Positions 16,744 to 28,522 of a stretch of DNA of 32,000 nucleotides are shown here, piece after piece. Position 1 is the first letter of the stretch, and each line of letters begins with the position of its first letter. The stretch is from Staphylothermus hellenicus DSM 12710 (GTDB lineage: Archaea > Thermoproteota > Thermoprotei_A > Sulfolobales > Desulfurococcaceae): assembly GCF_000092465.1 (NCBI RefSeq), contig NC_014205.1, positions 870,001 through 902,000 on the forward strand, read 5' to 3'. The notes beneath the pieces were generated by a model. It was not told where the DNA came from, did not search any database, and worked only from the letters and a program-made list of their open reading frames with translations. The position numbers and the translations under genes are program-made.

Positions 16744-17910
16744 ATGGGAGGAATTATTCTGAGTAATGCGAGGATAATAACACCCTTCGATGAGATATAT
16801 TCTGGAACTGTGGAGGTGGAGAATGGGGTTATTAGGAAAGTCTATTATGGGAAGAGAAGCGGTGGCGAGAACCTTGAGGGAAAAATACTGGTTCCCGGGT
16901 TCATCGATATACATACCCATGGAATTCGCGGATACGATGTTACATTAAGTGCTCTAGAAGGTTCTGTGGATAGAGTTGTGGATGCATTGATGGCGATGAG
17001 TAGGGCTTACAGTGTTCATGGAGTAACAAGGTTTCTTCCAACCACTGTGACAGCTCCACATGAAGTCCTCCTCATAGCTGCTAAGGGTGTTGCTGAAACA
17101 ATAGATTCTCAAAGAGACGGGATCGAGGGAGCATTGATTGAAGGACTCCACATGGAGGGACCATATATTAGCAGGGAGAAGGCGGGGGCGCAGAATCCCA
17201 GATATATACGGTCTCCAAGCATTAATGAATTAAAGGAGTATTGGGAAGCATCAAGAGGAAAATTAAAAACTATAACACTCGCACCAGAGGTTAAGGGAGC
17301 ATTAGAACTTATACAGTATGCTAGGAGTCTAGGAATACATGTTTCCATAGGCCACACCAATGCTACATATGAAGAAGCTAAAGCCGCCATATATGCTGGG
17401 GCGAATAGGGCTACCCACCTCTATAATGGGATGAGACAGGTTCATCATCGAGAACCCGGTGTTGTAGTTGCTCTCCTAGAAAGCCCCCAAGTATACTTAG
17501 AGTTTATATGTGATTATATCCATGTCTCACCTATTATGATCAAGTATACTATAAGATGCGCTGGTATAGAGAGAATAGTAGCTGTTACTGATTCAATAAT
17601 TGCTACGGATCTCCCTGATGGAACATATAGTTTGGGGGGATTAGAAATAATTGTTAAGGATGGAGTTAGCAGGCTTAGAAACGGAGCTCTTGCCGGAAGC
17701 ACCCTCACAATGGATAAAGCATTGAAAAACCTGGTAAAACTAGGGATTCCATTAAAAGATGCGGTGAGAACATTAACATATAATCCAGCAATAGCTGTAG
17801 GCATATATAATGCTGGAGCAATAATGCCTGGATACACAGCGGACCTTGTAGTTTTAGATGAGAACTTAAAAGTTGAATCTGTATATGTTCGGGGAGAAAA
17901 TATATTGTAG
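16744..17910 (+). CDS. nagA: N-acetylglucosamine-6-phosphate deacetylase
   Basis: It matches E. coli NagA in several blocks:

- PGFIDIHTHG
- GLHMEGPYISREKAGAQNP (E. coli GLHLEGPWLN..KKGTHNP)
- SIGHTNATYEEAKAAIYAGANRATHLYNGM (E. coli [30 protein letters not shown])
- REPGVV
- GSTLTMD

I prefer the ATG at 16744 over the track GTG at 16702. Confidence 0.93.
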   Translation: MGGIILSNARIITPFDEIYSGTVEVENGVIRKVYYGKRSGGENLEGKILVPGFIDIHTHGIRGYDVTLSALEGSVDRVVDALMAMSRAYSVHGVTRFLPTTVTAPHEVLLIAAKGVAETIDSQRDGIEGALIEGLHMEGPYISREKAGAQNPRYIRSPSINELKEYWEASRGKLKTITLAPEVKGALELIQYARSLGIHVSIGHTNATYEEAKAAIYAGANRATHLYNGMRQVHHREPGVVVALLESPQVYLEFICDYIHVSPIMIKYTIRCAGIERIVAVTDSIIATDLPDGTYSLGGLEIIVKDGVSRLRNGALAGSTLTMDKALKNLVKLGIPLKDAVRTLTYNPAIAVGIYNAGAIMPGYTADLVVLDENLKVESVYVRGENIL

Positions 17911-17927
17911 AAATAAAACTGTGGATC

Positions 17928-19751
17928 TTATGTAGTTATTGCCTTGGCTAGTCCGGGCGGTGTATCTACTGGGTATCCCTGTTTTACTCCTAGATGATAT
18001 GCTATGAGTTGTAAGGGGATAATAGTGGTTATTGGCGATAATATTTTATGGGTGGGTTTAACCTTAACTACTTCGCCATAGCCTGTTTCATCGTGTGTGA
18101 TTGTTACTAGGAAACCGTTCTTTGATAATACATATTCAGCAACCCTATTATATAGAGGTAAAGCTTCTTCCTCAATAGGCTTTATTATAATTACTGGATA
18201 ATTATCTCTTATAAGAACCAGCGGTCCATGTCTTAGCTCACCTAACTGAACACCTTCTGCATGTATTATGGATGCTTCCTTAAATTTTAGAGAAGCCTCT
18301 AGTGCTACGGGATAATTTATTCCACTACTTGATACATACATGTTTCTCCACCCTAACAGTTTCTCAGCGATCTTTTCCGCAGTATTATCATAGACCTTTA
18401 GATCTTTTCTTAATGCTTTAGCTGTCCCACGTATTTTCTCCGTGATCCCTGCATATTCGTCTCGGCTAAGCTTACCAGTATATAATCCAGTATATCCAGC
18501 AAGTAAAGCTAGTGCGACAAGGCTTGACACAAAAGTTTTTGTTGCAGGAACAGCTAATTCAGGGCCAGCACCTATTGGTAAATAAACATTTGATTCGAGC
18601 GAGAGACGAGAACCAACAACGTTTGTGACTCCTATAATTACTGCTCCATACTGCTTAGCAAGCTTTACACTCTTAATAACATCGCTTGTTTCCCCACTCT
18701 GACTAATAGCTATAATGACCGTGCCGGTTGAAACATTTTTCAAAGCATAATAGGGGAATTCAGCCGCACTCACTACATTGACATTTATATTTGCTAGATC
18801 AGTGAAGTAATATGATGAAACCATTCCTGCATGAAGACTTGTACCATTACCAATAACATATACGTTTTTAGCACCATAGATTATCATTGCTGCTAATCGT
18901 AGATATTTCTCCATCAATGAATATGTTGTCCTGACCATAGAGTCTGGTATTTCATATATTTCCTTCAACATATAATGTGGATACCCTGCTTTTCCAACTA
19001 GTTCTACTTGGTATTTCACTCTCTTCCTAATCAATTTCTCAATACTTGTTGGCTCCATGTTTTCAGCATTAATAATCCTGATATTATCTATGCTTATCTC
19101 AGCAGCCATACCCTCCTCAAGTATTAATGCTTCATCAGCATAACCATATAGACTTGGAATATCGCTTGATAAATAAACACATTCATTACTATGAGTTAAC
19201 CCGACAACAAGGGGTTGACCATTATGAGCAACATAGAATGATTCCTTCCCAGCAATAATGGCTGCGATACCATACATGCCTCGGAGCTCACGCATATACC
19301 TAGCAGTAGCTTCCAAAGGATCTCTTCTCTCCCTAAACACAGCTTCCTCTAATAAATGAGCATAAACCTCTGTATCCGTTCTAGATGCGAAGCTGTGTCC
19401 TTTCCTAACCAGTTCTTCCTTGTAAGCCTCATAGTTTTCAATTAAACCATCCCCCACAACAGCGATCTTCCCGGTACAATCAGTTAGAGGATGAGTATTC
19501 TCAATGGTTGGCCATCCACGACTAGCATATCTTGTATGCCCCAGCACTATTCTCGATGAAATATTAAATAGGCCTTCATCAGCAATCTTTTCAAGATGCC
19601 CAGGCTTCTTCCTAACAACTATATTGCCCATATCATCAAGAAAAGCTACGCCGACACCATCATAGCCTCGGTAGAGGAGGCGTCTAAGCCCCTCAAACAC
19701 TACTCTCCCACGGATCTTCTCCCTACAAATAACACCAAATATTCCCCCCAC
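17928..19751 (-). CDS. GlmS-like glutamine--fructose-6-phosphate aminotransferase homolog with a degenerate glutaminase site and an intact isomerase (SIS) part
   Basis: It aligns without gaps to E. coli GlmS from the GTG at 19751, giving 608 aa against 609.

- **Isomerase residues kept:** SQSGETSD, KFKEASIIHAE, ELRHGPL and the C-terminal LAKAITT.
- **Glutaminase changes:** MCGI has become (M)GGI and VVHNGIIEN has become VVGDGLIEN.

The 26 upstream codons in the track ORF are probably not coding. Confidence 0.85.
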   Translation of the reverse strand: MGGIFGVICREKIRGRVVFEGLRRLLYRGYDGVGVAFLDDMGNIVVRKKPGHLEKIADEGLFNISSRIVLGHTRYASRGWPTIENTHPLTDCTGKIAVVGDGLIENYEAYKEELVRKGHSFASRTDTEVYAHLLEEAVFRERRDPLEATARYMRELRGMYGIAAIIAGKESFYVAHNGQPLVVGLTHSNECVYLSSDIPSLYGYADEALILEEGMAAEISIDNIRIINAENMEPTSIEKLIRKRVKYQVELVGKAGYPHYMLKEIYEIPDSMVRTTYSLMEKYLRLAAMIIYGAKNVYVIGNGTSLHAGMVSSYYFTDLANINVNVVSAAEFPYYALKNVSTGTVIIAISQSGETSDVIKSVKLAKQYGAVIIGVTNVVGSRLSLESNVYLPIGAGPELAVPATKTFVSSLVALALLAGYTGLYTGKLSRDEYAGITEKIRGTAKALRKDLKVYDNTAEKIAEKLLGWRNMYVSSSGINYPVALEASLKFKEASIIHAEGVQLGELRHGPLVLIRDNYPVIIIKPIEEEALPLYNRVAEYVLSKNGFLVTITHDETGYGEVVKVKPTHKILSPITTIIPLQLIAYHLGVKQGYPVDTPPGLAKAITT

Positions 19752-27875: not shown

Positions 27876-27916
27876 AACAATAATGCCTCCCCCATAGTGC
27901 TATTTAAACCAATATA

Positions 27917-28522
27917 TTATTCGAGCTTTAATGCTTTATGAAAAGATAATAGGTCATTAATGAATCTATCCGGGTAATCAAGATATGCTGGATGACCTGC
28001 TTTATCATATATTAATAACTCGGCTTCTAGGAGCTGTGAAAGCTTCTCCATTTCTTCACGCTTAACAATTCTATCCCTAGATCCCCAGATTATAATAGTT
28101 GGAACACTCATGGATCTATATTTTCTAACCAGTTCTTCTTCTAAAGCATGAGCAGGAGCTATGAGGAACAAACCTGCCACAGGCTTCTCCAACGCATATC
28201 TTAAACCAATATATCCTCCCAAGCTAGCTCCTACAATTAATGGTTTTAAAGAACCAAATACTCCCCTATAAATTTCGTGGAGAACAAACAGGTTTTCACC
28301 AACACTACGTGTATGAGGACTACATATGCTTCTAGCTCCATAAGGCATATCAATAGCTATAAATGGGATCTTCTCATCCTCGAGCCTGTTCAACACACCT
28401 ATATCTCTCCAAACATCACTTGTAAAACTATAGCCGTGAAGAAAGACTATTGGTAATCCAGAAACATTATTATAGATAATCCTACACCTATACTTTCCAA
28501 CATTATATGATTCCTCGATCAA
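27917..28522 (-). CDS. Alpha/beta-fold hydrolase
   Basis: It has VFLHGYSFTSDVW, the nucleophile elbow GASLGG, and a C-terminal GHPAY histidine. The start is TTG. Confidence 0.8.
   Translation of the reverse strand: MIEESYNVGKYRCRIIYNNVSGLPIVFLHGYSFTSDVWRDIGVLNRLEDEKIPFIAIDMPYGARSICSPHTRSVGENLFVLHEIYRGVFGSLKPLIVGASLGGYIGLRYALEKPVAGLFLIAPAHALEEELVRKYRSMSVPTIIIWGSRDRIVKREEMEKLSQLLEAELLIYDKAGHPAYLDYPDRFINDLLSFHKALKLE

Follow-up and report, generated by a model that had tools for sequence, protein, structure and literature searches.

Enzymes that resemble parts of an N-glycan degradation route are known from several systems. The GH130 phosphorylases BT1033 and Uhgb_MP, cytoplasmic five-bladed β-propellers with a catalytic Asp in an x-D-P-R motif, act on Man-β-1,4-N-acetylglucosamine (Man-GlcNAc) alongside GH18, GH92, and GH20 partners, and glycosylasparaginase (GA; the Elizabethkingia/Flavobacterium enzyme and human AGA), an N-terminal nucleophile (Ntn) hydrolase of the Asparaginase_2 family, splits the GlcNAc-Asn bond. 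Further down, bacterial nagA-nagB and NagB-II modules, and GlmD of the Thermococcus chitin pathway, link a deacetylase to a SIS-domain isomerase able to convert glucosamine-6-phosphate (GlcN-6-P) into fructose-6-phosphate (Fru-6-P) and NH3. Here we examine a 32,000-nt stretch of the genome of Staphylothermus hellenicus DSM 12710 (the window), in which the genes between positions 16744 and 28522 had been read in a preliminary description as a single N-glycan salvage route: GH130 would split Man-GlcNAc, the Asparaginase_2 protein would split GlcNAc-Asn, and a ROK kinase, NagA, and a GlmS-like protein would carry GlcNAc to Fru-6-P. If true, no earlier proposal of N-glycan recycling in Crenarchaeota would have preceded this one. 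Our results indicate instead that the 12-kb stretch is probably not one pathway but a set of independent units brought side by side in Staphylothermus only, and that, among the listed sugar genes, only NagA and the GlmS-like protein look like a true functional unit. The genes are as follows:

16744-17910, plus strand: NagA, predicted GlcNAc-6-phosphate (GlcNAc-6-P) deacetylase (TIGR00221 nagA equivalog, 307 bits, cut-off 225.65; Amidohydro_1 match)
17928-19751, minus strand: GlmS-like protein with a class-II amidotransferase domain and two SIS domains (TIGR01135, 489 bits, cut-off 418; GATase_6/7)
19896-20996, minus strand: GH130 five-bladed β-propeller, predicted β-mannoside phosphorylase (PF04041, 279 bits, cut-off 26)
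21514-22197, minus strand: class-I S-adenosylmethionine (SAM) methyltransferase (Methyltransf_11/23/12/25 matches)
22216-23181, minus strand: Asparaginase_2 Ntn hydrolase (PF01112, 258 bits)
23260-24612, plus strand: SpoIIM-like (DUF95) polytopic membrane protein (PF01944 match)
24617-26833, minus strand: three-domain predicted glycosidase, GHL6 plus GH42M (PF14871, 159 bits; PF08532, 45 bits)
26901-27875, minus strand: ROK-family ATP-dependent gluco/hexokinase (PF00480, 174 bits)
27917-28522, minus strand: small α/β-fold hydrolase (ABH; Abhydrolase_1/6 matches)

Profile scores from Pfam and NCBIfam place all of the named sugar-related families intact at these coordinates, within 12 kb, and the proposed ABH-ROK-GHL6 operon is plausible, with all three genes on the minus strand and gaps of 41 and 67 bp. 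The methyltransferase and the SpoIIM-like protein, together with a vapB-like open reading frame (ORF) and a PIN remnant described below, are interspersed among these genes and had gone unlisted. A family scan of the region found no transporter, hexosaminidase, endo-β-N-acetylglucosaminidase, peptide N-glycanase, or α-mannosidase, which weighs against a complete N-glycan route, and an Rfam scan of positions 16000-29500 for riboswitches or other RNAs linking the genes gave zero matches.

The conservation of these genes bears on the relationship between them. Gene order across the cluster is identical in S. marinus F1, whose proteins are ~90% identical to those of S. hellenicus, and this shared order, with all of the families inside 12 kb, is a point in favor of the N-glycan route. 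The full arrangement recurred in S. marinus F1 only. For comparison, 80 loci carrying GH130 orthologs (46-78% identity) were collected from other archaeal genomes, with flanks that reached 10 kb at most and summed to 1.03 Mb (in 34 loci each flank measured 5 kb or more), and searched with all window proteins; many of the loci compared in this work are short contigs of metagenome-assembled genomes. Around GH130 in this set, NagA, Asparaginase_2, ROK, and ABH were each found at none of the loci, GlmS-like at 2 of 80, both ~5 kb away, and GHL6 at 3 of 80, where it is adjacent and convergent. Desulfurococcus amylolyticus (locus L109) carries a backbone of radical-SAM protein, methionyl-tRNA synthetase (MetRS), ROK, SpoIIM-like protein (on the opposite strand), and Asparaginase_2, and in this locus GHL6, ABH, the methyltransferase, GH130, GlmS-like, and NagA are all absent. 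The co-conservation in related genomes on which the N-glycan route depends therefore fails outside Staphylothermus. The only pairs that recur outside the genus are NagA/GlmS-like, SpoIIM-like/Asparaginase_2, ROK/GHL6, and GH130/GHL6; judged from the surroundings of GH130, GHL6, Asparaginase_2, and GlmS-like, conservation is limited to such small pairs. The genes do lie together, yet the complete arrangement is confined to the genus and built on an ancestral housekeeping backbone, and the evidence says that for the most part the neighborhood arose as an accident of gene order at the level of the genus.

NagA and the GlmS-like protein stand apart from this pattern. The NagA ORF opens at 16702, with Met15 the likely start, giving 388 residues as in S. 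marinus; the translation contains the metal-site motifs H-x-H (DIHTHG), EGP, GH, and TD, and by its profile score the protein is a bona fide equivalog match to GlcNAc-6-P deacetylase, the activity it is predicted to have. The real start of the GlmS-like gene is the GTG at 19751, preceded by GGTGGTG, so that the protein begins MGGIFG; it has 607 residues and is 92% identical to its S. marinus F1 counterpart. In two other genera of Desulfurococcaceae (L084 and L086), NagA lies directly upstream of GlmS-like on the same strand, with gaps of 7 and 30 bp, whereas the Staphylothermus pair is convergent and not co-transcribed. In those two loci (L084:1-11821 and L086:1-11812), NagA followed by GlmS-like closes a larger cluster encoding a 1,050-residue DUF4015 protein, Acetyltransf_9, peptidase M14, a neutral-ceramidase-like protein, GFO/IDH/MocA, AP_endonuc_2, a GHL10/DUF4015-like protein, and SIS_2, a candidate locus for amino-sugar polymer utilization. 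The lower end of the proposed chain, from GlcNAc-6-P through GlcN-6-P to Fru-6-P, is supported by the NagA equivalog match, the intact isomerase residues of the GlmS-like protein, and this adjacency in two other genera. The resemblance to nagA-nagB, NagB-II, and GlmD systems lies in the link between deacetylase and isomerase, but the partner here is a GlmS-type protein retaining an amidotransferase domain of 240 residues at its N terminus, whereas the NagB-II/GlmD type is SIS-only and ~330 residues long. The GlmS-like protein scores only 119 bits against the NagB_SO3506 model (cut-off 430) and 75 bits against GlmD (cut-off 580). A further difference from nagA-nagB modules is that the Staphylothermus NagA and GlmS-like genes have neither a regulator nor a transporter of their own next to them.

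The amidotransferase domain of the GlmS-like protein lacks the catalytic cysteine. Residues are numbered as is customary for E. coli GlmS, and the sequences used were checked against the PDB. In an alignment to this enzyme (4AMV), catalytic Cys1 corresponds to Gly2 and the H-N-G motif reads G-D-G (Asn98 to Asp), while the isomerase motifs SQSGET, KxKE, KHGP, and LAK are intact. The same holds across 121 crenarchaeal homologs (including Saccharolobus and Desulfurococcus): Cys1 is Gly in 116 of 116, Asn98 is Asp in all 121, and the replacements of Trp74 by Tyr and His77 by Arg are universal, as are the isomerase residues S303, S347, Q348, S349, T352, K485, E488, H504, and K603. Because Cys1 and Asn98 are replaced throughout, the glutaminase function is predicted to be lost clade-wide in crenarchaeal (Desulfurococcales and Sulfolobales) GlmS. 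A sequencing error or misplaced start was considered as the source of the missing Cys1 and rejected: the upstream in-frame Cys lies four residues from G-G-I-F-G, and all 116 of the 116 homologs begin M/V/L-G-G-I-F. Nor does the N-terminal domain look like a decaying relic, as its mean pairwise identity is 50% (62% for the C-terminal domain), with 27 invariant columns, and Arg26, Arg73, Gly99, and Asp123 are invariant in all 121 sequences; judged from these patterns, the domain clearly appears to be under selection. With its isomerase half intact, the GlmS-like protein should interconvert Fru-6-P plus NH3 and GlcN-6-P. A literature search on GlmS in Sulfolobus and on crenarchaeal GlcNAc catabolism found nothing on a Cys-less GlmS or on this cluster; the 2009 S. 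marinus genome paper had already noted GlcNAc-utilization genes at the annotation level. Of the by-products of this analysis, the loss of Cys1 across the GlmS clade is the most interesting and deserves separate follow-up: Sulfolobales and Desulfurococcales require UDP-GlcNAc for N-glycans, and one must ask how they make GlcN-6-P.

The genomic contexts of the GlmS-like gene bear on the direction in which it works. An alternative account of the stretch is biosynthetic: the GlmS-like protein would be an NH3-using GlcN-6-P synthase supplying UDP-GlcNAc, and GH130 would synthesize a glycan, a reserve mannan, or a solute by β-mannosyl transfer from mannose-1-phosphate (Man-1-P) or GDP-mannose (GDP-Man). 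The contexts differ in L085, L106, Desulfurococcus, and Saccharolobus, and the occurrence of the Cys-less protein in housekeeping surroundings in the last two, and beside a sugar-1-phosphate nucleotidyltransferase in L085, agrees with such a role, as does the presence of apparent dTDP-rhamnose genes in the same window. NagA, by contrast, is a catabolic or recycling enzyme, and in three lineages its linkage to GlmS-like is the tightest of any gene; phosphotransferase system (PTS) components flank GlmS-like in L083 (2465-9872: mannose-family IIA, IIB, IIC, and IID, HPr, and EI) and L106 (4012-5706: EIIC-GAT and IIB). The PTS is rare in archaea. L083 and S. marinus encode identical GlmS-like proteins, and the PTS contigs are Thermoprotei-type, possibly chimeric assemblies. 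Catabolism fits the NagA linkage and the PTS neighbors, biosynthesis fits the genomes without NagA, and the protein probably serves both.

For GH130, the assignment on which the upper part of the N-glycan route rested is not supported. In HMMER searches of solved proteins, the window enzyme matched Teth514_1789 (59 bits), Teth514_1788 (52), Uhgb_MS (34), Lin0857 (25), and, last, Uhgb_MP (22), the latter over 106 residues, about one third of the protein; identity to any characterized enzyme is ~23%. An AlphaFold (AF2) model built on 19 orthologs, with a mean confidence score (pLDDT) of 94, gave a consistent picture, as the top Foldseek ranks were taken by GH130 β-1,2-mannoside phosphorylases, at identities of 22-25%, while TM1225 and Uhgb_MP, at 16-17%, came lower. 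In the HMMER alignments, Asp123 of the T-E-D-P-R motif aligns with the catalytic Asp (x-D-P-R) of Teth514_1789 and Teth514_1788, and Glu122-Asp123, Lys188, and Arg204 correspond to E136-D137, K184, and R202 of Uhgb_MS; these residues and His271 are invariant in the 19 orthologs, with Arg204 in an HRP motif and His271 in HG(I/V)D. Other phosphate contacts, such as R88 of Uhgb_MS, fall outside the aligned region. E136/K184 marks β-1,2 specificity, a Glu/Arg pair is found in a β-1,3 enzyme, the β-1,4 enzyme Uhgb_MP is recognized by Y103/R150, and R202 is a phosphate-binding residue (PMC12814180); likewise, a Glu beside the catalytic Asp, together with a Lys, is a feature of β-1,2-active members, and the hydrolases of the family swap basic residues for Glu (PMC4599007). 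The catalytic Asp and a phosphate-binding Arg are thus kept, as the N-glycan route would have it, and the Tyr/Arg pair of the β-1,4 enzyme is absent, Glu122 and Lys188 standing where Uhgb_MP has Tyr103 and Arg150. Because Glu122, Lys188, and Arg204 match Uhgb_MS and the nearest sequences and folds are β-1,2 phosphorylases, the window GH130 is most likely a phosphorylase for β-1,2/1,3-type mannosides, possibly with a weak transferase activity, and not a Man-β-1,4-GlcNAc phosphorylase.

The company that GH130 keeps also differs from that of its described relatives. The enzyme shares with Teth514_1788/1789, Lin0857, and Uhgb_MS (GH130_4/_6) the Glu-Asp motif, the Lys of NKD, and the Arg of HRP, but the archaeal subfamily is only 22-25% identical to them and its usual neighbors are glycosyltransferase-like genes, not mannan-utilization genes; compared with BT1033 and Uhgb_MP, it has no GH18, GH92, or GH20 partners and is not co-conserved with NagA. 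GH130 orthologs are near-universal in Thermoprotei, with a much broader distribution than that of GHL6 or NagA. One is present in Hyperthermus butylicus, which according to the S. marinus genome paper lacks GlcNAc-utilization enzymes, an occurrence that argues against the N-glycan route. The commonest neighbors of GH130, at 32 of the 80 loci (20 + 12), are weakly Glycos_transf_1-like proteins (for example L003:4159-5229 and L017:11087-12220), a pattern that may point to a part of the archaeal subfamily in biosynthesis or in mannoside cycling. These neighbors, and the reverse phosphorolysis and weak GDP-Man transferase activity shown by β-1,2-type GH130 enzymes (PMC12814180), favor the biosynthetic account, but the glycosyltransferase Pfam matches lie below the gathering threshold, and, taken together with the linkage of GlmS-like to NagA and the PTS, we consider it rather improbable that biosynthesis explains the stretch. 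No homologs of the GH130-associated glycosyltransferase-like, CDP-alcohol transferase, or MGS-like genes were found in the window, and a search of the literature on archaeal GH130 found nothing addressing this cluster.

The Asparaginase_2 protein was the second of the two enzymes meant to make the route specific for N-glycans. Against the PDB, HMMER ranked 9HNC (153 bits), EcAIII (147), and human ASRGL1 (126-131) above Flavobacterium GA (123) and Taspase (100), with identities of 37-38% to isoaspartyl peptidases and 34% to GA, and the alignments to GA begin only at query residue 35 and GA residue 20, leaving GA residues 1-19 without a counterpart. We aligned the window protein with two orthologs, EcAIII, 9HNC, and GA; the GA reference is identical to the PDB sequence save for the engineered T152A. 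Ser-Asp-Thr189, Thr207, Arg217, Asp220, and Thr239-Gly240 correspond to GA Thr152, Thr170, Arg180, Asp183, and Thr203-Gly204, so that the fold, the Asp-Thr autoprocessing site, and the Thr, Arg, Asp, and Thr-Gly residues are all shared with GA. These catalytic and aspartate-binding residues do not discriminate between the alternatives because they are common to the whole Asparaginase_2 superfamily. What does discriminate is the N terminus, where the window protein reads I-L-H-G-G-A-G (HGGAG at 10-14) followed by a helix, as in EcAIII and a plant enzyme, whereas GA has S-T-W-N-F without the helix; the Ser-Thr-Trp-x-Phe segment of GA is missing, and with it Trp11 and Phe13, which we take to stack on and bind the GlcNAc ring. 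With EcAIII, hASRGL1, and the plant-type enzymes, which give the best PDB scores, the window protein shares the HGGAG loop, the threonine triad, and Arg-x-x-Asp; it differs from EcAIII and hASRGL1 in its proline-rich LPPLPPPP linker, its longer α-subunit tail, and its divergent pairing with a SpoIIM-like gene. Its score against the NCBIfam β-aspartyl-peptidase equivalog (163.5 bits) is below the cut-off of 567. In a classification based on CDD, Desulfurococcales homologs fall in an uncharacterized Asp2like2 group related to plant-type asparaginases (PMC9670692). Because the HGGAG loop, the score ranking, and this published placement agree, the protein appears to be essentially of the isoaspartyl-peptidase/plant-type L-asparaginase type, within the Asp2like2 subgroup, and its designation as a glycosylasparaginase is not upheld.

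Although no link between the Asparaginase_2 protein and glycans was found, the gene is part of a conserved arrangement of its own. The SpoIIM-like gene is divergent from it, with a 78-bp spacer, and the divergent pair is kept in L087, L088, D. amylolyticus, and L111, persisting across Desulfurococcaceae down to 27-31% identity for the SpoIIM-like protein and 47% for Asparaginase_2 (L111), which suggests a functional link between the two. The methyltransferase gene follows the Asparaginase_2 gene after a gap of 18 bp; it keeps this place in S. marinus and L087, and other genes are found there in L109-L111.

The ROK kinase had been assigned the GlcNAc step. Its NCBIfam scores, all below the equivalog cut-offs, are highest for the Pyrobaculum ATP-glucokinase model (GK_Pyrobac, 267 bits, cut-off 500), followed by ROK glucokinase (159) and the NagK models (64 and 41); its best PDB matches are the Thermus and Streptomyces glucokinases (115-120 bits), with NagK at 34-49 bits. 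It is in this respect comparable to the ROK gluco/hexokinases of Aeropyrum pernix, Thermoproteus tenax, and Pyrobaculum. The A. pernix ROK glucokinase is reportedly of broad hexose specificity, and by analogy phosphorylation of GlcNAc by the window ROK is possible. In D. amylolyticus the ROK gene adjoins MetRS with no glycosidase beside it, and its position beside MetRS is ancestral. According to the S. marinus genome paper, the glycolytic ATP-glucokinase of that organism is the A. pernix-type enzyme. With glucokinase-like scores far exceeding those for NagK and a place by MetRS in the housekeeping backbone, the ROK kinase offers no support for a dedicated GlcNAc step. The ABH gene upstream of it, the first of the apparent ABH-ROK-GHL6 unit, is conserved in this position only in Staphylothermus, and its product gave no informative match.

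On these results, the proposed chain from glycopeptide to Fru-6-P is supported at its GlcNAc-6-P end and not in its N-glycan-specific top. A new pathway is unsupported because co-conservation fails and the two enzymes that made it an N-glycan route bear the wrong signatures. The missing glycosidases and the housekeeping position of the glucokinase-like ROK add to this, and the mannose of known crenarchaeal N-glycans is α-linked, not β-linked, on the chitobiose core. What can be said in favor of the route, apart from the shared order in S. marinus, is that the GH130 catalytic Asp and a phosphate-binding Arg are retained, that the Asparaginase_2 protein has the GA-like Asp-Thr processing site in a subfamily without a characterized member, and that the link between NagA and GlmS-like is real; on balance, we regard a single N-glycan salvage route as highly improbable. 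What survives of it is the conserved NagA/GlmS-like amino-sugar node. Each of the proteins belongs to a known family, and the case warns against stringing Pfam family names into pathways.

A looser coupling of the sugar genes was also considered, in which GHL6 takes part. The sole solved relative of this protein is the GH151 α-L-fucosidase ALfuk2 (6TVK; E 5e-10 over ~170 N-terminal residues). Asp164 of GHL6 aligns with residue 183 of the 6TVK chain, which is the ALfuk2 nucleophile Asp154 at the end of β-4 if the 29-residue tag offset deduced from the chain length (689 versus 660 in the native protein) is applied, and both proteins have a Cys-x-Cys...Cys stretch after β-4; the acid/base Glu235 of ALfuk2 and the complementing His503 fall beyond the part that aligns. 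GHL6 is thus a putative, distantly GH151-like cytoplasmic glycosidase; like GH130, ROK, NagA, and GlmS-like, it has no signal peptide. Unlike ALfuk2, the archaeal GHL6 orthologs sit behind CUT1 sugar importers: in a set of 19 metagenome loci, the usual partner directly upstream is a CUT1 ABC importer (substrate-binding protein, two permeases, and MalK). GH130 is convergent to GHL6 in 2 of these 19 loci (L093 and L095), and in four (L092 and L097-L099) a mannosylglycerate-synthase-like GT2 lies just downstream of GHL6. A search of the literature on GHL6 found nothing addressing this cluster. These associations could reflect a glycan-salvage island of Staphylothermus and close relatives in which an imported β-mannoside oligosaccharide, not necessarily an N-glycan, would be cut by GHL6 and GH130 in the cytoplasm, ROK would phosphorylate hexoses, GlcNAc-6-P would pass through NagA and GlmS-like, and Asparaginase_2, the methyltransferase, and the SpoIIM-like protein would be bystanders. 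GH130 and GHL6 are neighbors in two lineages in different arrangements, one of them beside a CUT1 importer, the ROK-GHL6 adjacency is found again in L087 and L101, and the lack of signal peptides is consistent with cytoplasmic processing. Yet the window region has no transporter, the GH130-GHL6 adjacency is a minority arrangement (seen at 3 of the 80 loci collected for GH130 and at 2 of the 19 collected for GHL6), GH130 occurs much more widely than either GHL6 or NagA and mostly stands beside glycosyltransferase-like genes, and the position of ROK is ancestral, so that we consider an island of this kind unlikely. A related proposal is that the Cys-less GlmS is an ammonia-dependent, freely reversible GlcN-6-P synthase/deaminase that, together with NagA, closes GlcNAc catabolism without NagB or GlmD, and that in Staphylothermus this module has been joined to the β-mannoside phosphorylase and the GH151-like glycosidase as a small cytoplasmic glycan-salvage island; as a whole, this is possible, and we put it forward only tentatively.

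The explanation that we favor, a Staphylothermus-specific juxtaposition of independent units, is based on family membership, residue patterns, and conservation patterns as observed, from which we infer reaction directions and substrates. The first unit, NagA with GlmS-like, would form an amino-sugar node; the linkage of the genes is observed, and, as for direction, NagA would deacetylate GlcNAc-6-P and the GlmS-like protein would deaminate GlcN-6-P when amino sugar is available and otherwise synthesize it from Fru-6-P with NH3. The second, a stand-alone GH130, would phosphorolyze or reversibly build β-1,2/1,3-type mannosides, yielding Man-1-P. The third comprises ABH, ROK, and GHL6, in which ROK would be the general glucokinase of the cell and GHL6, elsewhere the last gene of a CUT1 operon for sugar import, would have been inserted beside it in this lineage. 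The fourth would be the conserved pair of Asparaginase_2 (with the methyltransferase) and the divergent SpoIIM-like protein. The third and fourth units would lie on the ancestral backbone of radical-SAM protein, MetRS, ROK, SpoIIM-like protein, and Asparaginase_2.

Several observations weigh against this explanation. GH130 and GHL6 are convergent neighbors in a second lineage (L011, L014, L016, L093, and L095), and combinations of ROK with GHL6 (L087 and L101), of GHL6 with SpoIIM-like and Asparaginase_2 (L087 and L088), and of GHL6 with SpoIIM-like (L089) recur in contigs whose proteins, for the first two combinations, are 59-73% identical; some sub-blocks therefore recur beyond pure chance, and their genes may to some extent be functionally coupled in Staphylothermus. 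In addition, GlmS-like is found in housekeeping surroundings that lack NagA, and its main role may be biosynthetic. Finally, the specificities given for Asparaginase_2, GHL6, and GH130 are predictions from distant relatives because these archaeal subfamilies have no characterized member. Even so, the comparison better delimits three archaeal subfamilies: a β-1,2-type GH130, an Asp2like2 Ntn hydrolase paired with a SpoIIM-like protein, and a GH151-like GHL6.

Two further features lie between the methyltransferase and GH130, and both are on the minus strand:

21226-21456, minus strand: VapB-like antitoxin candidate ORF of 76 residues (MSVVLSIRIPKKLKEEMDKL...), named for its appearance and without a Pfam match
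insertion at ~21000-21456, minus strand: disrupted PIN/VapC-like remnant (VNVIDASFLV...) after the vapB-like ORF

The spacer at this site is 171 bp in S. marinus, where the ~350-bp insertion is absent. Toxin-antitoxin-type genes are dense elsewhere in the window, at 8137-10772 and 15893-16638, with two PIN-like ORFs and overlapping HEPN/nucleotidyltransferase pairs at 9977-10772 and 15893-16638, one of which directly abuts NagA; the PIN and HEPN labels of these ORFs are transferred from the Pfam assignments of their homologs at loci L081 and L106. Positions 5-4002 on the plus strand hold an apparent dTDP-rhamnose/NDP-sugar set, assigned from translations alone: an RmlC-like and an RmlD-like protein, an NAD-dependent epimerase, a nucleotidyltransferase that resembles RmlA and has a left-handed helix domain at its C terminus, and another RmlC-like ORF, shorter than the first. 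A 743-residue protein with an N-terminal membrane anchor, a long Thr/Ser/Pro-rich stretch, and no Pfam domain, probably heavily glycosylated, is encoded at 13103-15334 on the minus strand, immediately upstream of the genes examined here.

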